Virus record (IMG/VR): IMGVR_UViG_3300036770_005462
Span: 8,103 to 72,102 of that record
Length of the DNA: 64,000 nt
Strand: one strand, 5' to 3'
Source: a virus
Shown here: in pieces, positions 11,526-54,210 of the stretch
Numbering within the stretch: the first letter of the stretch is position 1
How the letters are laid out: the number at the start of each line of letters is the position of its first letter
The notes under the pieces: generated by a model
What the model saw: the letters and a program-made list of their open reading frames with translations, nothing else
The model's database searches: none
What the model was told of the DNA's origin: nothing
Made by a program: the position numbers and the translations under genes

Positions 11526-12629
11526 TTGTGTGCGGAGCGTGCCGTGACTAGTCGGATGCCGCGTTGGGAGCAGGCGCTAGCCCATCCCAATGTTCGGGCA
11601 TTCCTTCGCGTCATTCGCCAAGGCGAGTCGAACCAGACTGACAACGCTTACCGCATGATGTTCGGTGGTGAGCTGTTTGAGGGTAGCTTCGCCGATCACC
11701 CCCGCCGCAAGATCACCAAGCCGCTGGGCGGCAAGCCCATAACGAGTTCCGCGGCCGGGGCCTATCAGTTTTTGGAGCGGACGTGGACGTCGCTGGTGGC
11801 GCTCTACGGTTTCTCCGACTTCAGCCCCAAGAATCAGGACCTTGGCGCGGTTGCGCTGATCGAGGGCCGAAAGGCGCTCGACGACGTGCTGGCCGGGAAG
11901 TTTGATGTTGCAGTGCGCAAATGCGCTTTGGAGTGGGCAAGTCTCCCCGGCAGTCCGTACGGACAGCCGATGATGTCCATCGAAAAGGCGCGCCAGCTTT
12001 ACGTATCGTTTGGCGGGGAGTTCGCTCCCGCCGCCCCTGTTCCGAAATCGGAGGCTGCTGTGGCCCTTCCCCTTCTTGGCATTGCAGCCGCTGTGCTGCC
12101 CTCCCTGATCCAAGCCGCGCCGGATCTTCTCAAGATCTTCAACGATCCGGACAACCCGGACAAGACCAGCCGCGAGCGCGACGCCGAGTTGGCCGTCAAG
12201 GTGTTGGAGATCGCCAAGGAAGCTACGGGCGCGACCACCGTTGAAGAGGTCATTCCCGCGGTGCAGTCGCCGGAAGGCCAAGAGGCGTTCCGCGAGGCCG
12301 TCAAGAGTGAGTGGTTCCAGCTGCAGCAAGCGACTGAAAAGTCCGTCGACACCGCCCGCAAGTACGCGGTTGAGTACGCCCAGATCAAGAACGTACGGAC
12401 ACTGTTCGGCAAGTGGTTCCGGATCACGTTCCTTGAGTTCCTGTCGCTGGTGTTCGTGGTGATCAGCGCCGGGGGCGCTTACATGGTGCTGACCGATGAG
12501 TCCTTCGGGGAGCAGATGCGTGGCGCGGTGATTACGCTGATCCTGATCGGCGGCTTTACCGGCGTGCAGAACTTCTGGCTTGGTAGCTCGCTGGGCTCCA
12601 AGATGAAAGAGGACAAGAAGCAGGAGTGA
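11526..12629 (+). CDS. Lambda-R-like lytic transglycosylase (GH104-type lysozyme) with a C-terminal double-TM extension; the start is ambiguous among TTG 11526, GTG 11544 and ATG 11556
   Basis: The N-terminal domain aligns by eye with phage lambda R: GGELFxxxxDHPR...AAGAYQFLxRTW...DFSPKNQD...WASLPGSPYGQ. The C-terminal 100 aa contains two hydrophobic helices (FLEFLSLVFVVISAGGAYMVL and AVITLILIGGFTGVQNFWLG). Confidence 0.75.
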   Translation: MCAERAVTSRMPRWEQALAHPNVRAFLRVIRQGESNQTDNAYRMMFGGELFEGSFADHPRRKITKPLGGKPITSSAAGAYQFLERTWTSLVALYGFSDFSPKNQDLGAVALIEGRKALDDVLAGKFDVAVRKCALEWASLPGSPYGQPMMSIEKARQLYVSFGGEFAPAAPVPKSEAAVALPLLGIAAAVLPSLIQAAPDLLKIFNDPDNPDKTSRERDAELAVKVLEIAKEATGATTVEEVIPAVQSPEGQEAFREAVKSEWFQLQQATEKSVDTARKYAVEYAQIKNVRTLFGKWFRITFLEFLSLVFVVISAGGAYMVLTDESFGEQMRGAVITLILIGGFTGVQNFWLGSSLGSKMKEDKKQE

Positions 12630-20620: not shown

Positions 20621-23311
20621 ATGAAGAAGGTCAAATCGAACGTCACGCAGGACTTCAACACCAAGCGCGGTCTGCGTATGTACGCGGATGGCGGGCTCGT
20701 CGGCACCGCTGCCACGGGTCTGCGCAACCGGCATAACCAGATCGACGCTGCGGTGAACGGCGCGCCTACGGCGCAGCCCGCGGTGGCGACGAAGCCTGTA
20801 GCGCCCGCTCCTGCGCCGGCCCCCGCAAAGCCCATCGAGAAGCCCGCTCGCGTGTTCGGCGTCCCTATCGGTGGCCCGGTCGGCAGCGCCCTGCGCAAGC
20901 TGGGCATGAAGGACGGCGGCGAGGTGAAGGGCCCCGGCGGTCCGCGGGACGACAAAGTGCCGGCGAAGGGCCCGCAAGGCGAGCGCGTGCAGCTGTCGAA
21001 CGGCGAATATGTGCTGCCGTGGGAGACCGTCGACGCGCTTGGCGGCGCGGAAGAGCTGGACGAGCTGGTACGTGAGACCACGGGCCGCGAGCCCGGCCCG
21101 AAAGTCATTGGCGGCGTGCCGCACGCTGCGGCTGGCTGGGGTCTGAAGAAGGCGCTTGGCAACACCGACGTGGTGGAAGCGACTGCCGCTGATTTCGAAG
21201 CGGCGGGCGGCACCAAGCCCGCCAAGCCGGCGACACCGGTGCAGTCCGCTGCGCCGTCGAACCTCGGTTCCCGGTACGAGGCGTGGCGCAACAAGGCCAC
21301 TAGCGCTCTGCGCCGTGGCATCGACGTCGCTGGGCCGAAGGTGAGAGAAGTCGTCGGCGACCTGCGTGGTGCTGCTTCCGTTGGCGCAGAGGACGGCGCA
21401 GCTGCTGGAAGAGCCGCCGCGGCAAACGTCGGCGGGCGTGTGGGTCCGGCCCTCGGCGCAGTACAGGGTGCGGTGGAGAAAATCCCCGGCGTCGCCCCGT
21501 CGGTGAAGGGCGTGACCGTGGCCGACGCCACGCTGAATGACTTCGCCAAGGCACGTGCTGCCAGCGACCCGGCGTATCAGGACGTTACACAGCGCGCCGC
21601 GGCGAATCGCGCGCGGATGCCGGGCTCGATTGCGTCTTCGACGCAGACTGTGGCCCCCGGTGGTGGTGGCGGAACCCCGCCGTCGCCCCCGGGCGGAGGT
21701 GGCGGAGGTGGTGGCAAGCCCCCGGTAGGCGGCGCGCCGAAGTGGTATCAGCCGTCGGGCTTCGGTGCCAAGGCGTCGACCAAGCTCGTCGGTGCGGCCG
21801 GCAAACTCGGCGCTCCGCTCGCTATTGGCTCCGCAATTCCTGCCACCGCCGACATGGACGTGGACGCGCAAGCGCGGAACATGGGTGTTACGCTCGACCG
21901 CGACAACAGCGCGTGGGACATGGCCAAGGAGTTCTACGTCCGCGGCGCTGGCGCGCTGCGCAACATCGCCAGCAACGCCTCGTTCGGTCTGGTCGATCAA
22001 GCGCCGCGGCTGAACCCGCCCGAAGGCGCGCAACCCGCCGGTCCCGCTCTTGCCGCGGCTGGTCCTGCCGGTGCGAATCCTGACGTGCGTCGGGCGCTGA
22101 TTGATATGGGCGTGGACGATCCGTCGCGTCCGCCGGTGCCGCAGAACATGCGCGGTGACATATTGCGCAGCGCACGTCCTGATCCGGGTGCGTACATCAA
22201 CTTCGGCAACTATGGCGGCAACGCCGACGTGTACGGCACGGCGTCGCGCCCGGGCGGTCGGGTCAACAACTTCGCGGCCTCGGGTGGCCCGGGCAACGGC
22301 CCCGGCTACGACATGCAGCGCAACCTCGAATCCATGGCGCGCGCCAACGCGATTCGACAATCGATGATCGACTCCCAGCCGCAAGGCTCGCCGAGCGAGT
22401 TTCGCGACACGTCCGCAGCAGCCGAGACCGACGCCTTCGGCAAGACTGCAGCGCAGCGGCAGGAAGAGTCGGACGACTACAACTTGCGTCTGGCGATGAC
22501 GCGCGCCGGCAGCGGGCCGATCCCCGCCGGTTTGCGCGCGCAGCAAACGGCCATGTTGAACAACAAGTCCGAAGAAAAGCGCAACGCGCTGGACAACCAG
22601 ACGCGTACCCGCGGGCAGGATTTGTCCTACGACCTCGGCCTGCGCGGCGACCGCACGCAGCAGCGCGGCCAGAACATGACGTACGACCTCGGCATGCGCC
22701 GTGACGACACCGAACGATACGGTGTGGATTCCGTTGCGGGCAGCAACCGCGCGCGCCTGCGGCTCGATGCGGCCAAAGCCAACATGGAAACGGGCGACCG
22801 CCGTGCCACGGTTATGCGCGATGAGCTGAAGGACTTCGTGGGCCTTAACGTCAAAGACGGCAACACGGCCGAGAACCAAGAGCGGTTCAACCGGATCTAC
22901 CGCACGGCTGCAGCAACCGTCGGCAAAAACGGCATCGACCTGTCGCAGCTCGACCCGAACATTCGTACTGAGATCTACAAGCTTGCGGACCGCAAAGAGA
23001 AGATCGACGGCGAAAACGCAGCGCTCATCAACCAGCTGCTTGAATCCGTTGGCGTACGCGGGCGCAGCTTCCGGAGCGACAACGTGCTGGACTACGAGCC
23101 GAATCGCTTCGAGCGCGGGCGCTTCGGCGACACGTACTACTCCAACACCGGCGAGCAGTCGTATCAGCAAGTCGTCGGCGACGGTACGGACAAGGCCGGT
23201 CCGAGCTGGCAAGTGTGGACTGGGCAGACGCCTTCGCTGGAAGGGGCCCGCCGCGCTGACCGGCTTCAACAAGAAGAGCGTGAACGGATTCTTCGTAACG
23301 GGGGTCGTTAA
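20621..23311 (+). CDS. Gly/Pro/Ala-rich internal virion protein (896 aa)
   Basis: Low-complexity tracts such as GGGGGTPPSPPGGGGGGGGKPPVGG are present. Its TAA stop overlaps the next ATG (TAATG). The antisense 889-aa ORF at 20603..23272 is Arg-rich shadow. Confidence 0.55.
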   Translation: MKKVKSNVTQDFNTKRGLRMYADGGLVGTAATGLRNRHNQIDAAVNGAPTAQPAVATKPVAPAPAPAPAKPIEKPARVFGVPIGGPVGSALRKLGMKDGGEVKGPGGPRDDKVPAKGPQGERVQLSNGEYVLPWETVDALGGAEELDELVRETTGREPGPKVIGGVPHAAAGWGLKKALGNTDVVEATAADFEAAGGTKPAKPATPVQSAAPSNLGSRYEAWRNKATSALRRGIDVAGPKVREVVGDLRGAASVGAEDGAAAGRAAAANVGGRVGPALGAVQGAVEKIPGVAPSVKGVTVADATLNDFAKARAASDPAYQDVTQRAAANRARMPGSIASSTQTVAPGGGGGTPPSPPGGGGGGGGKPPVGGAPKWYQPSGFGAKASTKLVGAAGKLGAPLAIGSAIPATADMDVDAQARNMGVTLDRDNSAWDMAKEFYVRGAGALRNIASNASFGLVDQAPRLNPPEGAQPAGPALAAAGPAGANPDVRRALIDMGVDDPSRPPVPQNMRGDILRSARPDPGAYINFGNYGGNADVYGTASRPGGRVNNFAASGGPGNGPGYDMQRNLESMARANAIRQSMIDSQPQGSPSEFRDTSAAAETDAFGKTAAQRQEESDDYNLRLAMTRAGSGPIPAGLRAQQTAMLNNKSEEKRNALDNQTRTRGQDLSYDLGLRGDRTQQRGQNMTYDLGMRRDDTERYGVDSVAGSNRARLRLDAAKANMETGDRRATVMRDELKDFVGLNVKDGNTAENQERFNRIYRTAAATVGKNGIDLSQLDPNIRTEIYKLADRKEKIDGENAALINQLLESVGVRGRSFRSDNVLDYEPNRFERGRFGDTYYSNTGEQSYQQVVGDGTDKAGPSWQVWTGQTPSLEGARRADRLQQEERERILRNGGR

Positions 23312-26300
23312 TGGCGGGGCTTCGGCTTTACTCTCTTCCGCCTGAAGAGGAGCGCCCGCTTACCCCGTACGAACAGGCGGTACGCGGTGTCGATTCCTCG
23401 GGCGGTGAGTTCGGCCGGGGCGTAACTTCTGGCTTGCTTGGCGCTTTCGGTGGCGGCTACAACGCTACTGCGGGTGCCTTTCAGGAAGCGATGGGCGGCG
23501 ACCCCACGCGTTCCTACGACACGTCGCGAGGGCTGCTGCGCCGCGCCGGACAGGCCGCGCCCATCGTCAACAACTGGGACAAGGTCAATGGTGTTGGCGA
23601 CTTTCTCGATTACGCTGCGGGCGCTGCCGGACAAGGACTGGCATCGACGGCTCCGGGCGTAGCGGCGACGCTGCTGACTCGCAGTCCGCGGGTTGGCCTC
23701 GCCACGATGTTTCCGATGGAAATGGGCGAGTCAGTTGCAGCGACTCGCTTTGACCCCAGCATCCAGCAGCCCGACACTGCGACCATGCTGAGTGGCGCGG
23801 CCACTAAAGGCGCAGTGAATACCGCCATCGAGGCGGTGCCGTTCATGAACATCTTTGGTCGCGGTCCGCTGCGCCCGTTGATGAAAGCGGCAACGATGCC
23901 CGCTCGCGCTGGTGGACACATGCTGGCGGAAGGCGGCACCGAGCTGGCGCAACAGCGGGTCGGACAGCTTGCGCAGGACTACATGGTTCCGGGGCGCGAC
24001 ACCAGCGAAGACAACATGGAGTTGCGCGAGGCGTTTCTGCAAGGCACGCTGGGCGCAACCCCGTTCGCTGGCATGTCCCTCGCCGGCCACGCAGCGCGCG
24101 ATGCGGGCGTTGGAATGTCGAGTGCAATCGACAAGCTGTTTCCAGCAAAGGGCGAACCGACGGCGCTGGACGACCTCATCGAGTCGACGAAGAGCGTCGG
24201 TACGAAGCTGAAAGAGAAGTTCGACCCGGTCCTCGGCAAGGACACGGCCGAGACGATGGAGAACCTGCGCAAGCCGGTCGACGTCGACGCGCTGAACGAA
24301 GGCAAGCAGTTCAACCTGATGCGCCCCGGCGTGGACACGGCTGAAGACGACATCAAGAAGAAGCACAGCTTCCTGCGGCAGCAGCTGGGCAACAAGCACA
24401 CGTGGCTGGCCGAGCCGCTGGCGAAGGCGATGGACCGCTACCTACGTGGCGACACGCCGGGCGGCGACGACGCCAAGTTCAAGCAGGCGATCCTTGAAGC
24501 GTTCGACGGCAACGTCGAGCGGGCCAACGGCGTCATGGAACACTTCGCCAAGGCCGTCGAAGACTTCAGCGGCACGCTGGGCGAGCGCACCACGATCTAC
24601 GACACGGCGCGTGAGCCGTCGTGGGGCGACCGCGAGGCAGACGACGACACCGCGGCTGCGCCGGAAGGTCCGGCTATCGAGGAAGGCGGGCAGGAGTACA
24701 CGCCCAAGGCCAACTACCGCTTCGCCGGCACGGGCCGTCTGCGCCCGTACGAGAACCGCGCACAGGCTGGTGCGGCCCGCCGCGCGCTGGGAGCGGCTGA
24801 GGGCTCGAAGGTCAAAGTGCGCACGATGCTCGACTGGGCCCAAGAGCGTGGCAAGGACCCGGACAAGGCCCTGACCGACATGATCGGCGGACTGCGCTAC
24901 GACCTGAACGACATCCAGAAGCGGCTTCAGGATCGCGACATGCCGAAGGAGCAGCGCGAAGACTTGTTGCAACGCAGTAACGAGATCGTGTCGCTGCTGC
25001 GCAAGGCGATCCCGACAACTGACCCCGACACGGGCGAGATCACGGACTCCGCGACCGAGCGGCTGTCGAAGCTGTTCGTGCTGCGCGGCGAGGCTCTGCC
25101 GGCCGACGACCTGACTGCCACGTCGGAAGAGATCGCTGCCTACGCTGACAAGCGCGAGGCGTTTGGCGGGGCCAAGGGCGCGATGGTCAAGTTCCGCGCG
25201 CCGAACGGCAAGGTGCAGAACTTCAACGCGCGGCAGATCCTCGACCTCGGTCTGAAGTCGTGGAGCAAGCGCAACCCGGATCAGAAGTTCGTCGATGGCC
25301 CGGCGCACTGGCGGCGCGTGTATGAAGACGGCATCGCACGGCTGACGAACGCCGGGTACGTCCCGGATCAGTCGGAGCGCAACGGCGCGTTCCGTCCGTC
25401 GCTTGTCGTGCGCGACGGCGAGACCTACGGCGGGCTGGTTGAGAAGACGGCGCAAAGCGGCCAGACATTCGACGCGCTGCGCGACGAACAGTTTGGCGCA
25501 GACGCTGCGGCGGACCAGCGTGCCATCCTGAGCGAGCCGATGCAGGCGTCGCCGCAGGAGATTGCGGCACGTAAAGCGGAGGGCTGGGTTCCGCCGACGG
25601 TGGCTCCGGAAGAACAGAGTTCTGGCCGCGGCGACCGCATGGTCGAGACGAATCTGCTGAACCGCGAGAGCCAGCAGGGACCGGAAGGCAACGTCGGCGA
25701 GGGCTTCGACCCGACGCTGAACACGCTGCGCGATCAGGACCCGGACGGCCCGCGGCTGTTTGACGAGAACATCGTCAACAGCGCGAATCCCGACTTCGCC
25801 CCCGAGCGCCTCGAAGACACGCTGGCCAAGCCATACATGGTTCCGGACAAGCGGGCCAAGGGCGGCGCACGCAAGGCCAAGGGCGAGGAAGTCCGTGTCT
25901 CAGGCGCTCCGCTGGCGCAGCCGCAGGCTGCGACCGGTAGCAACTTGGAGAAGCTGCAGGGGCTGAAGGACCACATCGAGGCGTACCGCGCCAACCTAGA
26001 ACAGCGCGGCATCGACCCGACGAAGGCCCCGACGATGCGCCTGTTGCTCAAGCGCATGGCCGAGCTGGAAGCCGAGCGCACGAAGCTGACGAAGGAAGAC
26101 GTCGCCGCGGAGGAATCCGTAGCCGACACCGCCGCGCGCGAGGAAGCTAACCGTGCGCTCAAGCGGGAAGAGGCTGCGGCCGAGAAAACGCGCATGGCGG
26201 AAGTCACCAAGACACAGGTGATCGAGCCAGCGGAAAAACCCAAGGCTGCTCCAAAGAAATCCAAGAAGAAAGCCAAGGGCTACCGCTACGAGATCAAAGA

Positions 26301-29300
26301 CGACATGACCGAAGACGAGGTCGGCGAGACGCGCCGCCTCGAATTGATCAACGACCTGAAGAAGGCCGGCGGGGTCAACCTGCAGGACGTCATGGACGTT
26401 ATTGGCGAGCGCAAAGCCCGCGGCGTGAAGGTCATGCCGGGGCTGTTCACCAAGACCGGCATGCGCGTCGACATGCTCGCCGAGTGGATGGCCGAGAACG
26501 GCTACATCGCCGACGAGAGCGAGACCGACAAGGCGTGGGACATCGTCCGCGCCGCCACGGACAAGCAGGGCGTCTTCAAGATCGAGGATCAGGACGACCT
26601 CGGCCGTCGCCGCTTCGAAGAGCGGGCGAACAAGGAATACAGCCGGATGGATCTGTCCGGCGGGGCCGGCCAGAAGCTTACGGCCGACGAACGGCAGGCA
26701 CTGATCAAGGAGATCGTGCGGCTGCGCGGCACGCAGCTGCAGATCGCGTTCAAGGAGTTCGCCCAGATGGGTCCGGCCAAGCTGGACGCCAAGGGCAACC
26801 CGATCCTTGACGCCAACGGCGACCCGGTGCGGCAGGGTGCGTCTGGCGAGTGGTCGAAGGACAAGACCGCTGCCCACGCGCAGAAGATCATCACGCTGGC
26901 TGTCGACATTGGCTTTTCCAACGCGATGTCGGTTGCGCACCACGAGGCGGTGCACGACTTCTTCGCGGCGCTGCGCAGTGCGGATTCCTCGCCGGAAATG
27001 CGCAACATCGCCATGACTATCGAGCGTGTTGCGGAATTACCACACATCCGGAAACAGCTCGAAACGCTGCTGAAAAAGCACCCGGAAGCGCTGGAACAGC
27101 TCAAAAACCCTGAAGAGCGCGCAGCCTACCTGTTCCAGTTCTGGAAGGCGGGCCTCATCAAGGATCTGGCTCCATCGGCGCGCAATTGGTTCGAACGTCT
27201 GCTGAAGTTCCTCCGCGACGTGCTGGGCATCGTGTCGCTGGAAGAGAAGGGCGAGAAGCTGATGCTGGCGCTGGACGCCGGCAAGTTCACTGACGCCAGC
27301 ACCGTCGGTCGCGTGGTGGCCCAGATGAAGCTGGAAACCGCCGGCGACAAGCTGCAGCGCGTGGCTCCTGCGCTGTGGCATGTCGGAAACGTCGTCATGG
27401 CGAGCGTCACCGACCGCATGCGGCTGACTGAGGTGCCGGCCATCATGGCAATCGCCGACCGCCTGCACCGGGATGTCAGTCGGCAGACTGGCATGCGGGA
27501 CGACCGCCGCCCGGGGGCTACGAAAGCTGACCGGCGTAACGACCCCACCGAGCAGACCGACTTCCTTGACGCCAAGCAGCGCGCTAGCGGTATCTGGTAC
27601 TCGCAGCTGCTGAACCTGTTTCAGGGGGCCGACAAGTTCCAGATCGCCGACGCGCTGGAAGCGCTGCAGTCGCAGGAAGACAGCACGGACCCGATGGTGG
27701 TCAAGATCCGCGCCTTCCTGAAGCGCTTTCACGAGTACCTGTCGAAGGCTGACGTGATGGTCATGGACGACAGCCCGTACGAGAAGATCGACTCGAAGGG
27801 CAAGACCGTGTGGGTCTCGGGCGACGCAGCGCGGCGCTGGGTCCCGATTGCCGAGCGGCAAGTCGGGAACTACTTCCCGCGTTCGTGGGACCGCGAGAAG
27901 ATCATGGCCCACAAGGACGCGTTCGTGGACCTGATCGTGCAGAAGGGCCGCGAGGGCAACAAGACCGTGACGCGCGAGCGGGCACTGGAAATCTTCGACA
28001 CGATGACCAGCGCCGAGCAGGACGAGATCGCGGACGGCGCGGCGTTCACGCCGTACCTGATGAGCGCCAACACCCGGGCGCTGCGCTTCATTACCAAGGA
28101 CAACGCCAAGGACTTCGCCAAGTTCCAGAAGAAGGACATGGTGGCGATCCTGTCCACGTACACCTATCAGGCCGTGCACCGGGCGGAGTTCACCCGCTAC
28201 TTCGGCCATGACGGGCAGTGGATCAGGGAGAAGCTGGCGGAGGCCGAAGCTCAGGGTGCTACGCCCGAGCAGATGGCGACCGCGCGCAAGGGCGTCGAAG
28301 CCATGCTGGGCTCGCTGGGCCGCGACATGACTGAAGGCACCCGCAAGCTGATGACCTCGCTGATGGCGTACGAGAACATCGTGCTGCTGCCGCTGGCGCT
28401 GGTGAACAACTTCATGGACGTGCTGCAGATCGGGCTGCGTACCGGCGACCTGACCGAGTCATTCAACGCCATGAAGCAGGGGGTCATCGGCTTGAAGCGG
28501 CAGATCATGCGGGAGGGCCCGGACGAAGCCGAGCAGTTCTCGCGCTTGCTGGGCATGATCGACGAGAACGTCGAGCTGGCCAGCTACGGCATGCTGTACG
28601 ACGGTCACTTCATGGGCGGCATGGCGAAGAAGGTCAGCGACAAGTTCTTCCGCTGGAACGGCATGGCGACGTGGAACACGCGCATGCGCGTGGCGGCGAC
28701 GCAGGCCGGGGTGCGCTTCATCGAGCGGCACGCCGACAAGGCGCTGAAGGGTGACGAGCAGTCGATCCGCTGGCTGAAAGAGCTGGGGCTGGAAAAGAGC
28801 GACGTGCGGCGCGACAGCAACGGCAAGCCGATGTTCAAGCGCGAAGACTGGGCGCAGAAGCTGAACAAGCCGGTCGACAGCAAGGAAGTCATCGCCGCCG
28901 CTGACCGCATGCAGAAGGCGCTGTTCCTGTTCGTCGACAGTGCCGTGATCCGGCCCTCCGCGGCGCACCGGCCGATCTGGGGCTCCGATCCGCACTGGAT
29001 GCTGGTGTTCCACCTGAAACAGTTCACGTACAGCTTCCAGCAGGTGGTGCTGAAGTACACCCGCAAGGAACTGCAGCACGGCAACAGCTTCCCGGCCATC
29101 GCACTGATGATGTACGTGCCGTTCGCGATGGTGACCGACCTTACCCGGTCGGCCATCGTCGGACGCCCAATCGACTTCTCGCTAAGTGGGTTAATGGGTA
29201 GCGCAGTACGCAATTCGGCCGTGCTGGGTACTGGCACCTTCGGCATCGACGCGTGGAACGACCTTGGCAAGAATCAGGTGCCGGGCGCGTCGTTCCTCGG

Positions 29301-29430
29301 ACCCACGGCAGGTCACGCAATTCAGCTGCTGCAAACCATCGCCGGAAGCCCGCAGGACAGCATGTCACAGGCGGTCTTGCGCTCGCTGCCGGCTTCGCCA
29401 ATCCTGCGTGGTATCGATGCCCGGATCTGA
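23311..29430 (+). CDS. Giant virion-associated protein (2039 aa), likely an internal/ejection protein
   Basis: Uninterrupted 6.1-kb ORF, translationally coupled to the upstream gene. It contains a lone HExxH (AHHEAVHDF) at about residue 1220. No RNAP motifs are recognised. Confidence 0.6.
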   Translation: MAGLRLYSLPPEEERPLTPYEQAVRGVDSSGGEFGRGVTSGLLGAFGGGYNATAGAFQEAMGGDPTRSYDTSRGLLRRAGQAAPIVNNWDKVNGVGDFLDYAAGAAGQGLASTAPGVAATLLTRSPRVGLATMFPMEMGESVAATRFDPSIQQPDTATMLSGAATKGAVNTAIEAVPFMNIFGRGPLRPLMKAATMPARAGGHMLAEGGTELAQQRVGQLAQDYMVPGRDTSEDNMELREAFLQGTLGATPFAGMSLAGHAARDAGVGMSSAIDKLFPAKGEPTALDDLIESTKSVGTKLKEKFDPVLGKDTAETMENLRKPVDVDALNEGKQFNLMRPGVDTAEDDIKKKHSFLRQQLGNKHTWLAEPLAKAMDRYLRGDTPGGDDAKFKQAILEAFDGNVERANGVMEHFAKAVEDFSGTLGERTTIYDTAREPSWGDREADDDTAAAPEGPAIEEGGQEYTPKANYRFAGTGRLRPYENRAQAGAARRALGAAEGSKVKVRTMLDWAQERGKDPDKALTDMIGGLRYDLNDIQKRLQDRDMPKEQREDLLQRSNEIVSLLRKAIPTTDPDTGEITDSATERLSKLFVLRGEALPADDLTATSEEIAAYADKREAFGGAKGAMVKFRAPNGKVQNFNARQILDLGLKSWSKRNPDQKFVDGPAHWRRVYEDGIARLTNAGYVPDQSERNGAFRPSLVVRDGETYGGLVEKTAQSGQTFDALRDEQFGADAAADQRAILSEPMQASPQEIAARKAEGWVPPTVAPEEQSSGRGDRMVETNLLNRESQQGPEGNVGEGFDPTLNTLRDQDPDGPRLFDENIVNSANPDFAPERLEDTLAKPYMVPDKRAKGGARKAKGEEVRVSGAPLAQPQAATGSNLEKLQGLKDHIEAYRANLEQRGIDPTKAPTMRLLLKRMAELEAERTKLTKEDVAAEESVADTAAREEANRALKREEAAAEKTRMAEVTKTQVIEPAEKPKAAPKKSKKKAKGYRYEIKDDMTEDEVGETRRLELINDLKKAGGVNLQDVMDVIGERKARGVKVMPGLFTKTGMRVDMLAEWMAENGYIADESETDKAWDIVRAATDKQGVFKIEDQDDLGRRRFEERANKEYSRMDLSGGAGQKLTADERQALIKEIVRLRGTQLQIAFKEFAQMGPAKLDAKGNPILDANGDPVRQGASGEWSKDKTAAHAQKIITLAVDIGFSNAMSVAHHEAVHDFFAALRSADSSPEMRNIAMTIERVAELPHIRKQLETLLKKHPEALEQLKNPEERAAYLFQFWKAGLIKDLAPSARNWFERLLKFLRDVLGIVSLEEKGEKLMLALDAGKFTDASTVGRVVAQMKLETAGDKLQRVAPALWHVGNVVMASVTDRMRLTEVPAIMAIADRLHRDVSRQTGMRDDRRPGATKADRRNDPTEQTDFLDAKQRASGIWYSQLLNLFQGADKFQIADALEALQSQEDSTDPMVVKIRAFLKRFHEYLSKADVMVMDDSPYEKIDSKGKTVWVSGDAARRWVPIAERQVGNYFPRSWDREKIMAHKDAFVDLIVQKGREGNKTVTRERALEIFDTMTSAEQDEIADGAAFTPYLMSANTRALRFITKDNAKDFAKFQKKDMVAILSTYTYQAVHRAEFTRYFGHDGQWIREKLAEAEAQGATPEQMATARKGVEAMLGSLGRDMTEGTRKLMTSLMAYENIVLLPLALVNNFMDVLQIGLRTGDLTESFNAMKQGVIGLKRQIMREGPDEAEQFSRLLGMIDENVELASYGMLYDGHFMGGMAKKVSDKFFRWNGMATWNTRMRVAATQAGVRFIERHADKALKGDEQSIRWLKELGLEKSDVRRDSNGKPMFKREDWAQKLNKPVDSKEVIAAADRMQKALFLFVDSAVIRPSAAHRPIWGSDPHWMLVFHLKQFTYSFQQVVLKYTRKELQHGNSFPAIALMMYVPFAMVTDLTRSAIVGRPIDFSLSGLMGSAVRNSAVLGTGTFGIDAWNDLGKNQVPGASFLGPTAGHAIQLLQTIAGSPQDSMSQAVLRSLPASPILRGIDARI

Positions 29431-30376: not shown

Positions 30377-30447
30377 CTTGGCGGTTCCGGTGGGAGTCGA
30401 ACCCACTGTATTTCGGGATTGAAAGCCCGATACTCACCCTGACGGAA
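30377..30447 (-). tRNA. tRNA-like element with a canonical acceptor stem, T-arm and CCA but an aberrant D/anticodon region
   Basis: Minus-strand read: GGTTCCG...GTGGG-TTCGACT-CCCAC-CGGAACC-G-CCA. The acceptor stem is a perfect 7 bp and the T-loop is TTCGACT. However, the only stem available for the anticodon arm (TCGGG/CCCGA) encloses an 8-nt loop CTTTCAAT, and no D-stem can be drawn. Confidence 0.4.
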
Positions 30448-30452
30448 CCGAA

Positions 30453-47975: not shown

Positions 47976-48726
47976 GCTACGGGATGACAGACTTCCTTGG
48001 TGTCGATATCGATGCAGTACGAATACATGCCATCGATATTGCCCAGTCGCAACACTCGACCGGCGTGATACTTGCCAATGTCGGGTGGCGCGTTAGTGTC
48101 TTCGATAAGACGGAAGTGATCACCACTATCTAAGTCGTACAGCTTCATGGTCGTCTAGCGATGTAACCTTGCGGCTCATCGTCCTCGGATTGCAACTTTT
48201 GAAACTCTTCATTTGCTTTGTTTTTATCTTCAAAGCAATACCGCTTGCTCCACCCCCACCGGTCGCAGCCGACGTAAACCGCCCGAGTAAATAGCAAATC
48301 CCCGATTGCGGCGATAGAGCCGTCGGGGAGAATTCGTACTTCTCGATATTCCTGTCGAAGCCATTCGACAAGTTCAATGCACTCGGGCGTTGTTCTCGTC
48401 GGCGGTGTGGTAGGTGTGGTTTTCTTCGGACTCTTTGTCTCCGCTGGTGAAACCGGCCGGATCGACTCCGATGATGTGTTCTGGTCCGAATCGGACTTCG
48501 TCGTCATATTCCAGCCCGTGTGCGTCAGTGTTAACGAGATCGTTGCGCACAACGCCAACGAACCGGTTGTCTTCGATGGCTGTAATAGCGACCCAAAAAC
48601 GCTCACCGCCGCCTTTGGCTTTCACACCGATCTTGACCATATCGCCAACGCTTGCGCCGTAGCGATAGATCCAGCCGGGAATCTCGAAGGTGGCGGGATG
48701 CAGTGCGGCCATTTCCTCGCCATTGA

Positions 48727-48996
48727 TCAGTTCGTACACAGTTCCTTCTCCTTCTCTGTGACGATATCGGTTTTGGGGCCGGCGATGGGCTGCAAAGCGA
48801 ATTCCGGACCGCGGTCCCATAACCGGCGATAAAGTTGAATGCCGGGAGAAAACGTCCACCACAGATCTTTTTTACCCCGCTTGCCGGTGTAATACTCCGG
48901 ACAGGAACAACGCTCGCCAAGAGTGACGAGCTTGCCGTTGTGCTGAGGATATTTCGGCGTGTGGACGATACAGATGACGCCCGGGGCATGTTTCAT
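48727..48996 (-). CDS. Hypothetical Cys-containing small protein (89 aa)
   Basis: ORF only. Confidence 0.35.
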   Translation of the reverse strand: MKHAPGVICIVHTPKYPQHNGKLVTLGERCSCPEYYTGKRGKKDLWWTFSPGIQLYRRLWDRGPEFALQPIAGPKTDIVTEKEKELCTN

Positions 48997-49004
48997 TTCT
49001 CCCC

Positions 49005-49178
49005 CTAACTACTGCGGCGAGCGGTGCCTTCTTCGGGAGACCGCTTTAGGGTTTCTTCCTTCTGCGGCGGCTTCGACTCTTCCTTATTGCTAGTGACGAA
49101 TCCGCTGACTATCGCGATGAGAATGCCAGCGATAGCTAGCATAATCAGTACTTCGATGATGGTGAATCCGCGTTTCAT
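49005..49178 (-). CDS. Type IV pilin/pseudopilin-like small protein (57 aa) with a prepilin N-terminal motif
   Basis: MKRGFTIIEVLIMLAIAGILIAIV matches the prepilin cleavage/methylation motif (G-F-T-[LI]-I-E). Its ATG overlaps the SPFH stop (ATGA). Not in the ORF track because it is under 60 aa. Confidence 0.5.
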   Translation of the reverse strand: MKRGFTIIEVLIMLAIAGILIAIVSGFVTSNKEESKPPQKEETLKRSPEEGTARRSS

Positions 49179-49987
49179 TTGCCAACCCCTTGTAGGTTGA
49201 TGAAAGGCAAAGCACCGCTACCGAAGTTATAGTTCGGCAGCTTGCCGTCCCACTTCTGTACCGCTTCATACTCGACCAGCTTCGGATTTGATGCTAGTGC
49301 ATTGGCGCGGATACGCATCGATTCCGCTTGTGCTTGTGCTGTGATGACCGCTTGCTTGGCTTGTTCCTGCACTTGCACAGTTTTGTTCTTCTCTTCGATG
49401 GCGCGTTGCACAGCCACGACCTTGTCTTCGACCGATTTCTCGAATTCCTTGTGATACTGGATGTTCACGAGCTCGATGCGGTCGAAGATGACGTTGCGAG
49501 TTGCAAGTGCTTCGGTGATAGCGGTTTGAATCTCCGCTGTAGCTTTAGCTCGATGTTCGATCAGGTCGACGGCGTCGTAAGTGCCGATTACCTGCTTCAT
49601 GATGCCGCTGACTACTTGCGGAACTAGAGCGGTTTCCCACTGGCGTCCCACGTCCCGATAGACCGTGTGCGCCTCATTCGGATTCAGATGGAAGTTCATC
49701 ACGTACTTGATGTCCGCTTGCTGGACATCCTTGGTGTACGTGTTGGCGGTACCGTCCCACTTCTGCACTTGCACGTTGATCTCGACAATCTTCGTGGTAA
49801 GCGGATTGAAGAAGTACAGCCCCTCGGTCAAGGAGCCCGCTTCTTTGTCGACTTCACCGAAGCGGATTTGCACGCCACGGTGTCCCGTGTCGACCTGTTC
49901 GACACCGGCACAGCCGCCGATGACGCCCGCAAGCAGAACGATGGACAACAGTCCACCGATGGCGAGCCATTTCCCCATGCCTTCCAT
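49175..49987 (-). CDS. SPFH/band-7 (stomatin/prohibitin/HflKC-like) membrane protein
   Basis: N-terminal TM followed by the SPFH core (GHRGVQIRFGEV...TKDVQQADIKYVMNF...) and a C-terminal coiled coil. Confidence 0.65.
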   Translation of the reverse strand: MEGMGKWLAIGGLLSIVLLAGVIGGCAGVEQVDTGHRGVQIRFGEVDKEAGSLTEGLYFFNPLTTKIVEINVQVQKWDGTANTYTKDVQQADIKYVMNFHLNPNEAHTVYRDVGRQWETALVPQVVSGIMKQVIGTYDAVDLIEHRAKATAEIQTAITEALATRNVIFDRIELVNIQYHKEFEKSVEDKVVAVQRAIEEKNKTVQVQEQAKQAVITAQAQAESMRIRANALASNPKLVEYEAVQKWDGKLPNYNFGSGALPFINLQGVGK

Positions 49988-49989
49988 GC

Positions 49990-50094
49990 TTACTTCCTTT
50001 TGTTTGTGGGTTGAAAGACCGCGGCGACCAGCAGACCAACCGCAACGCCGACGCCGAAGAGAATTGCGCCGACAAAAACAGAACCGAGGACCAT
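49990..50094 (-). CDS. 34-aa single-TM peptide (MVLGSVFVGAILFGVGVAVGLLVAAVFQPTNKRK) translationally coupled upstream of the SPFH gene
   Basis: SD GGAGAAACCTC precedes the ATG. Its TAA stop is followed 2 nt later by the SPFH ATG. Not in the ORF track. Confidence 0.45.
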   Translation of the reverse strand: MVLGSVFVGAILFGVGVAVGLLVAAVFQPTNKRK

Positions 50095-50382
50095 GAGGTT
50101 TCTCCGTTGATGAATTCTTGCCAGTTACCCTCGTCTGGCGGCTGCGCGTTGAGGAATCGGCGGGGCCCCGCTATTCCGCGGCAGTCGGGGAAGGTGGACA
50201 AATAGGAGGGTACACACCCCCGCCGATGTTTCTGTCTATCGGTCAGAGACAGAGGGTTCACGTCCGAAGACAGTACCCACAACGATCAGACTTTCGGTGC
50301 TGACCAACCGAGAGGCGGAGACTGCCGCATCAGATCCGGGCATCCGATCCCGGCAACGGAGGGTTCTAATAGCACCCACAAC

Positions 50383-50799: not shown

Positions 50800-51005
50800 C
50801 CGCAGCAACTGCGCCCGCAGCACAGGAACTCGCGCTCGCGGGCGCGTTTGGCCTTGCGCTCTTCTTCCTCGCGCTTGGCGCGTTTGGCCGCTTCGATGGC
50901 TTTCGCACGGGCTTCGGCGACTTTGGCAAGCAGCACTTCGTCGGCAGACAGCTCGGTTTCGGGTTTGGGAGCGTCGCCTTCGTTAGGCTTGCGCTGTTTC
51001 AACAT
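50800..51005 (-). CDS. Small K/E/R-rich protein ending in a CCGRSCCGR motif (about 67 aa from MLKQRK)
   Basis: Its start (ATG) is adjacent to the AAA ATPase stop (TGAACATG). It has a charged helical body and a C-terminal CC-x3-CC. Confidence 0.4.
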
Positions 51006-52419
51006 GTTCAACGGTCCTTGTGTGATGCAATGCGTTAAGAGCCGCAATTTCACGCGGGCCCGCAAAGTCAGTCAGGGCCTCGCTGTGATCGACGTTGGTG
51101 TTGGCGATGAAGATGGACTTGACTGCCCGATGAACGTCGTCCGGCAGGACTCCGCTTGCCTTCGACGAACCCGCCGCAAGGTCGCGGTGGAGCGCATTGC
51201 TGGTTGCGTGTTCAACCGCTCCCACGATAAGCGCTCCACTGACCAGATGGGAGAGGCAAAAGCGACTCCGAGTCCGGTCCGAGAATGCGACGTCGTAATA
51301 CGCATGCTCAGGAGCGAAAAGCGCGTCGGTGAGCGTAGAAGCAAGGCTCGGCACGTCATGACCTTCTGCAATCGTGGTGGTTGAGAAGGCGAGCCGGGCA
51401 ATTTCCAGTGTTGAACGAATATCGGGACGCGATACGCGTATCTTTCGATCCATGCGGCCTTCGCGCGTGATGGCGCTGTCCAGAGACGACGCGCGGTTAG
51501 TCGCGACGACAACAATCGCGCCATTTTCGTCGAGCCCATCCATCTCAGCCAGAAATGTCGGGACAACGGTTTTTTCCATGAACGCATGACGATTGCTTCG
51601 GGAGCCAAGAAGGGCATCTGCTTCATCGATGAAAATCACGGCTGGTGTGCCGGTCTCCTTCTGATGGAATCGGGCGTCGGCGAAGATATCGCGAATGCGC
51701 GACTCCGTCACGCCGACGTACTCGTTCAGCAGTTCTGCGCCTTTGATGTAGATAAAACGGGTTTTTGTGCCGCCAACAGCCGTGGCGAGTGCCTTGCCCA
51801 GCATGGTCTTGCCGCAGCCGGGCGGGCCTTCGAGTAGCACGCCTTTGATGGGGCGCTTGCCGTAGCCTTTGTACAGCTCCGGATACTTCCGCGGTAATTC
51901 GACGGCCTCGATCAGTGCCAGCTTGGCGTCGTGAGCCCCGCCGATGTCATCCCACGTGACGTTGGTTGACGCCGTGAAGATGTATTGCTCGGCCTTGTTG
52001 GGGTAGTGCGCCACGATCACCATGCCGTTGGTGTCGAGGACAACCTTGTCGCCTTCCTTGATGGTCTTGCCGAAGCTGCCACGCAAGACGGTGCGTTCCA
52101 TGCCGTTGATGCTGATCTCGACGATCTGGCCGTCGAGTTCACGAGTCACTGGCACCAGCTCGCCCATGCGCGCCGGAAAATCCAGATGATCGACATATTG
52201 CATCGATTTGGGATGCAGCAGAATGCTGTCGCCGGAAGCAACCGCGGCTTCCTTGGGTTTGCCGATCCGGAGCATAGCTCCGCCGGCAGCGATCAACATG
52301 TATGTCTTGCCGGTGGCAAGCACAGTTCCGACAGGCAACGGAGCTTGTGCAATCCGTTCCAGTTCGCCTGACAGTTCTTCGACTTGAGACTGCAACTCCT
52401 TGACAGCGGTAGCGCTCAT
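50983..52419 (-). CDS. Classical-clade AAA+ ATPase with an N-terminal coiled coil and an OB-like domain (PAN/ARC/Mpa-like architecture)
   Basis: N-terminal coiled coil (ELQSQVEELSGELERI), beta-rich interdomain, Walker A GPPGCGKT, Walker B IIFIDEAD, and second region of homology (SRH) ATNRASSLDSAITREGRMDRKI. There is no C-terminal HbYX motif. Confidence 0.7.
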   Translation of the reverse strand: MSATAVKELQSQVEELSGELERIAQAPLPVGTVLATGKTYMLIAAGGAMLRIGKPKEAAVASGDSILLHPKSMQYVDHLDFPARMGELVPVTRELDGQIVEISINGMERTVLRGSFGKTIKEGDKVVLDTNGMVIVAHYPNKAEQYIFTASTNVTWDDIGGAHDAKLALIEAVELPRKYPELYKGYGKRPIKGVLLEGPPGCGKTMLGKALATAVGGTKTRFIYIKGAELLNEYVGVTESRIRDIFADARFHQKETGTPAVIFIDEADALLGSRSNRHAFMEKTVVPTFLAEMDGLDENGAIVVVATNRASSLDSAITREGRMDRKIRVSRPDIRSTLEIARLAFSTTTIAEGHDVPSLASTLTDALFAPEHAYYDVAFSDRTRSRFCLSHLVSGALIVGAVEHATSNALHRDLAAGSSKASGVLPDDVHRAVKSIFIANTNVDHSEALTDFAGPREIAALNALHHTRTVEHVETAQA

Positions 52420-52659: not shown

Positions 52660-54056
52660 CTAGTGACTTTCCGTGGTCATCACATCGCGAACGATGTTGC
52701 GGAACTGGCTGTCGAGGCTCGGCAGCTTCTCGGGGCCGCGATCCTTGTTGAGCAGGCGCAGCTGGCCCTGCATCGTGGACGCGGCTTCGATCAGTGCGGC
52801 TTCGGTCAGCATCTTGACCTTCTCGCCGGGCTTCTGCAGCGACAGCTGCGACAACTTCGCCCGCTTGACGACTTCCGCGATCACCGCGGGGATCGTGCCG
52901 GACAGCAGTTCGCCGACCTTGTGCAGGTCGGTGTCCTTGGCCAGCCGGTCGCCTGCGTAGACACGCAGGAGTTTCTCGACGGCAGGACCGTCAGGTTCGG
53001 CCACTTCGATCACGGCGTCGAGACGCCCCGGGCGCAGCATTGCCGGGTTGATGTTTTCGAGGTGGTTCGACGTCAGGATCACCATGATGTTCGCCGACTT
53101 GGTGTCGATGCCATCAATGATGTTCAAGATGTCGTCCATTTCCACCGTGCGTTCGCCGTTGAGCGAGCGGTCGATGTCTTCGCAGAAGATCGCTGCCGCC
53201 GGCTCTTGGTACTGCTTGGCGAAGCTCACTGCGTCGGCCAGTTCGTCGGCACGGCCGACGTAGATGAACGTCACGCCAGCCTCGACTGCGCGTTTGGCGG
53301 CAACTTTCGCTGCCAGTGTCTTGCCGGTGCCGTATTTGCCGCCGAGCAGCACACCGCGCTTGATCGGAATGCCGTTGGCCTTCAGGTCCTTGTGTCGCGT
53401 GATCGGCGTGAACAAGTTCACGTTGATCGAATTCTCGACTTCTTCAGGGAAGACCATCAGCGACTCGTCGACGTCGTCGTGCCGCATGAATTTCGGTTCC
53501 GGCATCGCCAGCCGGTCGCCATCTTCGTCGGTGAAGCGGATCTTGATGGCTTGACCGCGGTAGATCGAGTTCAGCTTCAGATACTCGCGCACTTCCTTGT
53601 ACAGCGCTTTGACGGTGTCTTCGTCCTTGCGCTTGACACTGGCGACGAGCGCGAAGCAGAGCAGGCCATCTTTCTTGTTGGCATCGCACTGCACGTAACC
53701 GTCTTGAATCGTCGGCATGCTGAACCGGCCCCACGGGACGTTGTGCATCTTCCCGGGTCCGATCTCGATGGCGATCATCTGCGGCGGTTGCTTGCCGAAA
53801 AAGCTCGGAACACCTTCCGCCGCGGCCCAGCCGAACTTCTGACGCAGGACTTGTTCCAGCGCGTAAGCGCCGTCCCACGGGAAGACGTTGAACGTCTCGT
53901 TGATGACGACCGGCTCTTCGAGGTACTTCAGCCGGCGATTCAGCAGATCGATGGCGTCCGGAATCTTCATCTTCTCCGGAAGAATCAGTTGCTCGCCGGC
54001 ATGAACAACTTCAGCGACGACAACTTTGGGGCCTTTCTTTTCCAACGTTTCACCCA
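52660..54056 (-). CDS. Second classical AAA+ ATPase with a roughly 250-aa N-terminal domain (likely start MGETLEKK, SD AAGGAG)
   Basis: Walker A GGKYGTGKT, Walker B IFCEDID, and SRH SNHLENINPAMLRPGRLD. The ORF-track start at 54153 is probably an upstream in-frame extension. Confidence 0.7.
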
Positions 54057-54210
54057 TGTGGGCGCTCCTTTTGTGAGTGGAACTACATGACAAGACGCAC
54101 GGCAGGTTTTGCCGACGTTTCCTTCGTGGTCCGCGTAAGCTCGTGCGGTCCAAACTTCGTGAATAGAATTACGATGAAGACGAAGAGCCAGAAAAGAGAG
54201 GCTCCAACGA

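Follow-up and report, generated by a model that had tools for sequence, protein, structure and literature searches.

The Three-Gene Cassette

The window analyzed here is a stretch of 64,000 nucleotides (nt) from the IMG/VR virus record IMGVR_UViG_3300036770_005462 (positions 8,103 to 72,102). It is a tailed-phage genome, which carries at positions 49005-50094 of the stretch a cassette of three small genes on the minus strand. In this order, they encode a 34-amino acid (aa) transmembrane (TM) peptide, called TM34, a 270-aa SPFH protein, and a 57-aa prepilin-like peptide. The three open reading frames (ORFs) lie where an earlier note on this DNA, made from its letters alone, had placed them. Comparison with related loci supports a core made of the first two genes, which a gene of the third kind has joined repeatedly and, once, by fusion.

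The stop codon of the SPFH gene and the start codon of the 57-aa ORF share the sequence ATGA, as had been described, while the overlap that the earlier note also saw between the 34-aa ORF and the SPFH gene is in fact a 2-nt spacer (TAA-GC-ATG). Shine-Dalgarno-like sites precede all three genes: GGAG for the 34-aa ORF (7 nt before the ATG), GGAAG for the SPFH gene, which sits within the final codons of the 34-aa ORF, and AAGGGG for the 57-aa ORF. A further gene, orf89, begins 9 nt past the stop of the 57-aa ORF and has its own GGGGAG site, so that the transcription unit probably exceeds three genes; thus, the operon described at first exists as to its genes, and is probably longer as to its extent.

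All three genes were predicted independently by public pipelines on three other contigs, where the 57-aa product is identical. Against a variant that is about 93% identical (L018), the synonymous and non-synonymous codon changes number 7 and 0 in the gene of TM34, 51 and 3 in the SPFH gene, and 9 and 7 in the gene of the 57-aa peptide, and this substitution pattern best fits the annotated frame. The seven replacements in the 57-aa peptide are all conservative and fall in residues 20-31. The gene order is unchanged in a sister phage (L253), at a synonymous divergence near or above 1 (dS about 0.7-1.2 for the two small ORFs); the products are identical at 33 of 34 residues for TM34, at 96.7% for SPFH, and at 62% for the 57-aa peptide. 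The corresponding ratios of non-synonymous to synonymous substitution (dN/dS, Nei-Gojobori method) are 0.038, 0.009, and 0.20, by which measure the rate of the 57-aa peptide is about 20 times that of SPFH. These comparisons of sequence confirm that the three genes are real and under purifying selection.

The small ORFs might be taken as chance open frames, with SPFH alone being real, given their lengths of just 34 and 57 aa and an antisense frame over the 57-aa ORF that is open too. The substitution data against the variant and the sister phage rule this out, since the TM34 gene changed at synonymous positions only in the first comparison and both genes have low dN/dS ratios in the second. Furthermore, homologues occupy the same position in divergent phages, curated hidden Markov model thresholds are passed, and the public pipelines call the genes on their own, all of which makes spurious frames extremely improbable.

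The Conserved Core: TM34 and the SPFH Lipoprotein

TM34 (MVLGSVFVGAILFGVGVAVGLLVAAVFQPTNKRK; 49990-50094, minus strand) is a single-pass membrane peptide, with the TM segment at aa 2-27 (50014-50091) and a basic tail, QPTNKRK (49993-50013). According to the positive-inside rule, its topology would be N-out/C-in. A small hydrophobic ORF ends just upstream of the SPFH gene in 115 of the 161 related loci where the SPFH N-terminus is visible. In the closest relatives, this upstream ORF is a clear TM34 homologue of 29-42 aa that starts with M(V/I)LGSV..., has one TM segment and a basic tail, and frequently overlaps the start of the SPFH gene. Judged by gene content, the conserved core of the cassette is the TM peptide together with SPFH, and the prepilin-like gene is facultative. 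SPFH is flanked by both peptides in the window, as described earlier, but the conserved unit includes the first peptide and not the second. More generally, the SPFH gene seems always to be accompanied by some small membrane protein, whose identity varies.

Other arrangements were observed at this position. A second family of SPFH-adjacent partners comprises 64-92-aa two-TM proteins with a common ...WP...GR... motif, encoded just upstream of SPFH in loci L086, L088, L091, L092, L096-L098, and L109, and a low-GC lineage has 62-63-aa two-TM proteins at the same place. In locus L009 (3848-4756), a TM-peptide-like N-terminus, a charged linker, and a lipobox-bearing SPFH domain are joined in one ORF; a cut by lipoprotein signal peptidase in this fusion would yield the two products that are separate in the window.

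The translational coupling of an SPFH gene to a gene for a small membrane protein is also a feature of the SPFH-NfeD operons, such as E. coli QmcA-YbbJ (PDB 8z5g). The partner in the window differs, being a 34-aa peptide without an NfeD/OB-fold domain. Pfam and NCBIfam gave no NfeD match for either the 34-aa or the 57-aa product, which rules out an NfeD partner; TM34 has no Pfam match of any kind. The two systems also differ in the side of the membrane, as the SPFH domain of QmcA is cytoplasmic and that of the window protein is predicted to be periplasmic.

The second gene (49175-49987, minus strand) encodes a prohibitin-type SPFH lipoprotein of 270 aa. It begins with a predicted signal peptide and lipobox, MEGMGKWLAIGGLLSIVLLAGVIGG followed by Cys26 (49910-49987; Cys26 codon at 49910-49912). 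The Band_7/SPFH alpha-beta domain extends over aa 31-213 (49349-49897), as delimited by the Pfam boundaries and by the strands and helices of the model. A long helix at aa 180-233 (49289-49450; pLDDT 83-91 in the model) corresponds to the 'wall' helix of SPFH cages, and a C-terminal motif defined by conservation, KLVEYEAVQKWDGKLPNYNFGSGALPF, occupies aa 236-262 (49202-49282). The Pfam match to Band_7 (PF01145) over aa 31-213 reaches 92.6 bits against a cut-off of 23.6 (E = 3.9e-26); thus, the SPFH core named in the earlier note is clear, whereas the N-terminal lipobox, which makes the protein a lipoprotein of the prohibitin type, had been missed. In PHROG, the protein matches phrog_200 'lipoprotein' (3.2e-48), the same family whose members are called 'prohibitin family protein', 'lipoprotein', or 'HflK family', none of them with a defined phage function. 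The best relatives of solved structure are human prohibitins 1 and 2 (4.5e-22), while HflK/C was not reached by sequence at E <= 1e-3 and was detected by fold only.

In the AlphaFold2 model (mean pLDDT 80.4), a hydrophobic helix at the N-terminus leads into the alpha-beta SPFH domain, which is followed by a helix of 54 residues and then by a disordered C-terminus. In Foldseek, the model aligns along its full length, over 260 columns, with the prohibitin chain 8rrh_A (E = 3.7e-16), and stomatin, erlin, HflK/C, and QmcA follow in that order. Like prohibitin 1/2 and HflK/HflC, the modeled protein combines a Band_7 domain with a long wall helix and a C-terminal region that would serve in assembly, and like them it is predicted to hold its SPFH domain on the non-cytoplasmic side by an N-terminal anchor. 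The differences are that the window lineage uses a lipobox cysteine in place of a TM helix, and that it has a single phage-encoded gene, with neither a hetero-pair nor an FtsH in the cassette. Prohibitin and HflK/C cage FtsH-family AAA proteases on the non-cytoplasmic side. Assembly of the window protein into an oligomeric cage may be envisaged from the single-chain prediction.

Cys26 is at least 90% conserved among 34 homologues and aligns with the canonical LAGC, LTGC, and LAAC lipoboxes of relatives. A cysteine stands directly before the SPFH domain in 89 of the 161 loci, and among the more distant relatives, some carry a TM helix in place of the lipobox. The alignment suggests that the protein is lipid-anchored at Cys26, which would leave its SPFH domain on the periplasmic side, comparable to HflK/C and prohibitin. 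Nowhere is the subfamily more conserved than in the motif KLVEYEAVQKWDGKLPNYNFGSGALPF, where W246, G248, P251, and P261 are invariant; the monomer model gives this motif low confidence, and it may take part in cap formation or in the binding of a partner.

Homologues of this SPFH protein occur in 341 GenBank phage records and number 1,733 proteins at E <= 1e-20. The same family is also present in bacterial genomes, mostly those of Bdellovibrionota and metagenome-assembled genomes of Melainabacteria (Gastranaerophilales, Vampirovibrio), and, among the species-representative genomes (loci L147-L226), a few Rickettsiales and Patescibacteria contigs carry the subfamily. In the literature found, phage SPFH proteins have no experimentally determined function, and proposals are limited to speculation drawn from HflK/C and lambda CII. 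PM0222, an HflK/C-like protein from a prophage of Pasteurella multocida, has been studied as a virulence factor that is released in outer-membrane vesicles.

The Prepilin-Like Peptide

The third gene (49005-49178, minus strand) encodes a truncated prepilin-like peptide of 57 aa, recognized by the N_methyl and TIGR02532 models. It is made of a leader, MKRG (49167-49178), a mature helix, FTIIEVLIMLAIAGILIAIVSGF (49098-49166), and a hydrophilic tail (49008-49097), which contains the conserved motif EETLKRSPEEGTARR at 49014-49058. The class III signal, MKRG/FTIIE, keeps all of G-1, F+1, and E+5 and is identical in the variants. Both curated thresholds are exceeded, with 24.6 bits against 21.2 for Pfam N_methyl (PF07963) and 24.5 against 16.3 for TIGR02532, and the GFTIIE motif is present, so the earlier description of a bona fide prepilin leader was correct. 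Its first 41 residues align with positions 1-41 of both the GspG and the GspH model, and a scan of all six frames of the window (1,395 segments) gave no prepilin-like match besides the 57-aa ORF (46.6 bits; runner-up 4.0). On these grounds, cleavage by a prepilin peptidase would be expected.

The helix FTIIEVLIMLAIAGILIAIVSGF has a Kyte-Doolittle 19-residue maximum of 2.89. The globular C-terminal alpha-beta head of pilins is absent, and after the helix come just 30 residues, which are hydrophilic and include many K, E, S, and P. Because it has no head domain, the product is classed as prepilin-like, or as a truncated prepilin, and not as a pilin.

Relatives of the peptide are few. A word-indexed protein search retrieved the peptide itself and one 88% variant only, and an exhaustive search of 1.84 billion representatives gave 13 matches. 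One of the homologues (P0123, 56 aa) is 60% identical and retains the tail motif KEETLKRxPEEGTARR, a sign of constraint on the tail, in contrast to the fast-changing middle part; others are 88% identical (P0002) or 36-37% identical (L228, L229). The peptide also matches the short phage families phrog_10597, phrog_13280, and phrog_11263 (45-66 aa), which have no assigned function. A tblastn search of the peptide against GenBank phages returned 0 matches, probably masked by the low-complexity filter, and the N-terminus of P. aeruginosa PilA, used as a query for the same type of search, found only three bacterial-looking records.

Pilin-like proteins of phages have recently attracted attention. 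Prophage-encoded FimU mimics enter the pilus and block phages that use the pilus tip (Sztanko et al. 2026, PMC12952977), and the same study describes truncated PilA-like proteins of about 60 aa in six non-temperate Pseudomonas phages, with the proposal that they enter or inhibit the pilus and may thereby exclude pilus-dependent phages. The window peptide shares with this truncated P-PilA-like family the size of about 60 aa, a helix-only N-terminus, and a non-temperate phage, a likeness of architecture alone; it differs in that no association with SPFH was reported for those proteins (PMC12952977). P-FimU, by comparison, is a full-size functional minor pilin, whereas the window peptide is truncated. 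By analogy, the fast divergence of the 57-aa peptide resembles the diversification of the phage FimU mimics. Another small phage protein, PfsE of Pf4, resides in the inner membrane, binds PilC, and suppresses type IV pili, leading to superinfection exclusion (PMC8764522). Like the window peptide, PfsE is a very small phage-encoded inner-membrane peptide, and it comes from a filamentous phage. PfsE is not known to carry a class III signal.

Recurrence of the SPFH/Prepilin Pair

The earlier note had proposed a search of phage databases for the co-occurrence of SPFH and prepilin-like ORFs. The pairing proves to recur, so it is no one-off, although prepilin-like peptides are also found apart from SPFH: a short prepilin-like peptide adjoins SPFH, or is fused to it, in at least five other lineages. 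In L228, whose SPFH is 72% identical to that of the window, a TM peptide, SPFH, and a 59-aa N_methyl peptide with the ATGA overlap follow each other in an otherwise unrelated genome. L229 and L230 (70% SPFH identity) contain a TM peptide, SPFH, a VWA gene, and then a 54-aa prepilin-like peptide. The low-GC lineage (L105, L107, L136, and L188) has prepilin-like ORFs of 51-89 aa at 14-128 nt downstream of SPFH, and in L201, a 250-aa prepilin-like protein is encoded just upstream of the SPFH module. A viral contig found by the peptide-centred search (L234) encodes a TM-anchored SPFH and then a 53-aa prepilin-like ORF. In two low-GC, gut-associated sequences, L130 (2614-3768) and L209 (2686-3768), a single ORF combines the two components in frame, in the order class III helix, second TM segment, charged linker, third TM segment, and SPFH domain.

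The adjacency was evaluated on 158 non-redundant SPFH loci, by counting only prepilin-like matches of at least 30 bits. Eight of the 14 prepilin-like ORFs were on the same strand between -500 and +300 nt, an interval that covers 14% of the searched space (P = 2e-4). The probability is 9e-4 without the lineage of the window and 8e-3 after merging related pairs. Within the genus of the window phage, the three-gene set has been retained across dS > 1.

The VWA proteins of L228 (3987-4607) and L229 (4774-5463) are cytoplasmic and carry the MIDAS sequence DRSGSM at their extreme N-terminus. They lie within the SPFH/prepilin-like cassette, and were considered as members of it; as they have no signal peptide and no homologue in the window, they were set aside as neighbours.

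The earlier note did not recognize the arrangement as a named system, and indeed no paper in the library searched treats SPFH and prepilin together in a relevant way. Both SPFH proteins and truncated prepilins are known in phages, each as an uncharacterised gene class; the repeated linkage of the two and the core of a TM peptide with an SPFH lipoprotein are new as far as checked.

Possible Function of the Cassette

None of the three proteins matches the PADLOC defence-system models at E <= 0.01. The reading that we favour, to which we assign a probability of roughly one in three (0.35), is that of an accessory envelope cassette that moves horizontally and, in this lytic-type phage related to KPP25, acts through a cage and a decoy. 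TM34 would insert in the inner membrane with the N-out/C-in topology. The SPFH protein would be exported, lipidated at Cys26, and assembled on the periplasmic face into a ring or cage similar to those of prohibitin and HflK/C, surrounding the membrane patch that holds TM34. The 57-aa peptide would insert as prepilins do, N-in/C-out, and the host prepilin peptidase would remove MKRG, leaving a hydrophobic alpha1-N helix with a 30-residue periplasmic tail. Since it has no globular pilin domain, such a subunit could not build a filament. Most likely, it would act instead as a decoy or terminator at the assembly platform of the type IV pilus or of the type II secretion system (T2SS), or it would compete with other substrates for the peptidase, and the infected cell would thereby be stripped of its pili, with superinfection exclusion or host takeover as the outcome. 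The earlier note had suggested that the peptide engages the pilus/T2SS machinery or the prepilin peptidase, and that the module serves superinfection exclusion, both of which are plausible. Within the SPFH cage, the peptide and other small membrane effectors would be held, concentrated, or protected, possibly by shielding from quality control of the FtsH type.

The fusions, and the fact that the cassette has moved between genomes, suggest a location of the peptide in, or at, the SPFH microdomain. Moreover, an SPFH protein that is nearly frozen, next to a peptide whose middle part evolves fast, fits a rigid scaffold paired with an effector, the latter following a target that varies. A stronger version, in which the three products would form a single device, with a prohibitin-like cage on the periplasmic face and the truncated prepilin as its bait or adaptor, seems improbable to us; such a device would trap the pilus/T2SS platform, the pilin pool, the prepilin peptidase, or the Sec/YidC route, and would switch off both pilus display and secretion.

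Several observations weigh against the favoured reading. The prepilin-like gene is absent in relatives with 79%, 74%, 71%, 69%, and 66% SPFH identity, in 11 IMG/VR relatives (37-62% SPFH identity), and as a neighbour in ten SPFH loci of cultured phages; a pilin-like ORF was found in 0 of 6 SPFH loci of cultured or faecal phages. Conversely, short prepilin-like peptides occur in phage contexts without SPFH (L062, L239, L240, L237, and P0128), which indicates that the two units can work independently. SPFH genes are also present in phages of hosts without prominent type IV pili, so the core function cannot be pilus-specific. A six-frame scan of the window found no pilus or T2SS gene other than the 57-aa ORF, and no prepilin peptidase. 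Finally, the residue at +2 after Cys26 is alanine, and by the sorting rule of E. coli, alanine at this position might direct a lipoprotein to the outer membrane; the SPFH protein might then be located there, apart from the inner-membrane peptide.

The same absences are the starting point of an alternative in which TM34 and SPFH form one unit and the prepilin is an independent, moron-like exclusion gene that shares a variable slot with them. Besides the many close SPFH relatives that have no pilin-like gene and the peptides that occur elsewhere without SPFH, this co-location without coupling would account for the cytoplasmic VWA gene that splits the pair in L229, for a local region full of small membrane-protein genes, and for the very strongly different evolutionary rates of SPFH and the peptide. 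It explains less well that immediate same-strand adjacency is enriched, that two divergent sequences carry the class III helix and SPFH as one fused protein, that the three genes move jointly into otherwise unrelated genomes, and that the set is kept across dS > 1 in the genus of the window phage; we consider it plausible, with a probability slightly below that of the favoured reading. The fusions themselves can also be read in another way, because the SPFH proteins of L130 and L209 have the class III helix as their first anchor. The helix might then be an anchor or a client of the SPFH microdomain, as NfeD and FtsH are elsewhere, and the cassette would modulate membrane quality control (FtsH, Sec/YidC) or membrane integrity, with no role at the pilus. 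The closest characterised families, prohibitin and HflK/C, cage FtsH-family proteases, and the presence of phage SPFH proteins across very different hosts fits a universal target; in Synechocystis, the accumulation of prepilin reportedly triggers the degradation of SecY and YidC. However, the window peptide retains every residue recognized by the peptidase, identically in the variants, and nothing ties phage SPFH directly to FtsH, HflK/C having no sequence match at E <= 1e-3, which leaves a function away from the pilus unlikely.

A role in lysis control was considered as well, since a small inner-membrane peptide followed by a coupled lipoprotein superficially recalls the spanin pairs; the small peptides would be similar to holins, antiholins, or i-spanins, and the lipoprotein to an o-spanin. 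However, o-spanins are short and proline-rich, while the lipoprotein of the window is a 270-aa SPFH protein, of a family that is also encoded in bacterial chromosomes. In addition, the endolysin-like gene (11526-12629) lies beside the head-closure gene, as in KPP25, about 37 kb away. Size and position of the genes rule out a spanin function, and a lysis module of any sort is very improbable.

SPFH or 'prohibitin family' genes are present in hundreds of sequenced phages, none with an assigned function, and the truncated pilin genes of lytic phages have been proposed as exclusion factors only since 2026. A cassette that repeatedly joins the two, and consists of three small genes, offers an experimental handle on both. 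If the parts cooperate, SPFH cages would have a client of a new type, and the virus would be disarming a major bacterial surface machine, which is also a virulence factor, in a new manner; were they to work as a single device, this would be a new mechanism of superinfection exclusion. If they do not cooperate, the small TM peptide and the SPFH lipoprotein still form a widespread pair that can be studied as a unit.

The Phage Genome and the Neighbourhood of the Cassette

The phage origin given in the earlier note is borne out by the gene content. The plus strand has a structural block with a major head protein, a head-closure protein, a lysin, and a 2,039-aa ORF, and the minus strand has a replication block with a DNA polymerase, a helicase, an exonuclease, and a primase-like protein. 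The latter, 772 aa long, is 42% identical to its counterpart in Pseudomonas phage KPP25 and relatives; KPP25 is the nearest cultured relative of the window phage, which by this protein is a distant relative of it. No integrase was found among the window genes scanned. KPP25 has neither an SPFH nor a pilin-like gene in 58 of the 64 kb of its genome, and a megablast search of the cassette region against GenBank phages gave 0 matches at the nucleotide level.

The neighbours of the cassette are AAA+ and DUF1360 genes and unknowns, according to Pfam, PHROG, and NCBIfam, and genes for small membrane proteins are abundant in the surrounding region. The cassette with its downstream neighbours (48374-50094) has a GC content of 0.52-0.56, compared with a window mean of 0.59, and a third-position GC content (GC3) of 0.60-0.67, compared with 0.69-0.84 in the core genes. 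These lower values fit an accessory, acquired region.

Between the DUF1360 gene and the 34-aa ORF lies an intergenic region of 288 nt (50095-50382, minus strand), which is near-identical in the variant L018, with 100% identity over the final 105 nt, at a place where the adjoining coding DNA differs by 6-9%. It matches no Rfam family, and its folding energy is not in excess (z = 0.14). The region is probably a promoter or 5' leader of the cassette; its conservation may be due to recent recombination, or to a promoter or regulatory function in the phage.

Two AAA+ genes in tandem (50983-52419 and 52660-54153, minus strand) lie close upstream of the cassette. The 478-aa AAA+ product matches TIGR03689 (proteasome ATPase, Mpa/ARC) from end to end with 247 bits, which is under the family cut-off, and also the AAA modules of PAN, Cdc48, and FtsH; it is 94% identical in the sister phage L253. 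The matches of these AAA+ neighbours include no protease domain and no TM segment, and are proteasome-ATPase-like. An unfoldase of this kind is unusual in a phage and may have a role in protein turnover during infection.

Two other features were noted at a distance from the cassette. The 2,039-aa ORF (23311-29430, plus strand; GC3 0.84) lies 3' of the tail and structural genes. A tRNA was called at 30382-30449 on the minus strand by Rfam, with 30.4 bits against a gathering score of 29, while ARAGORN found 0 tRNAs in the window.

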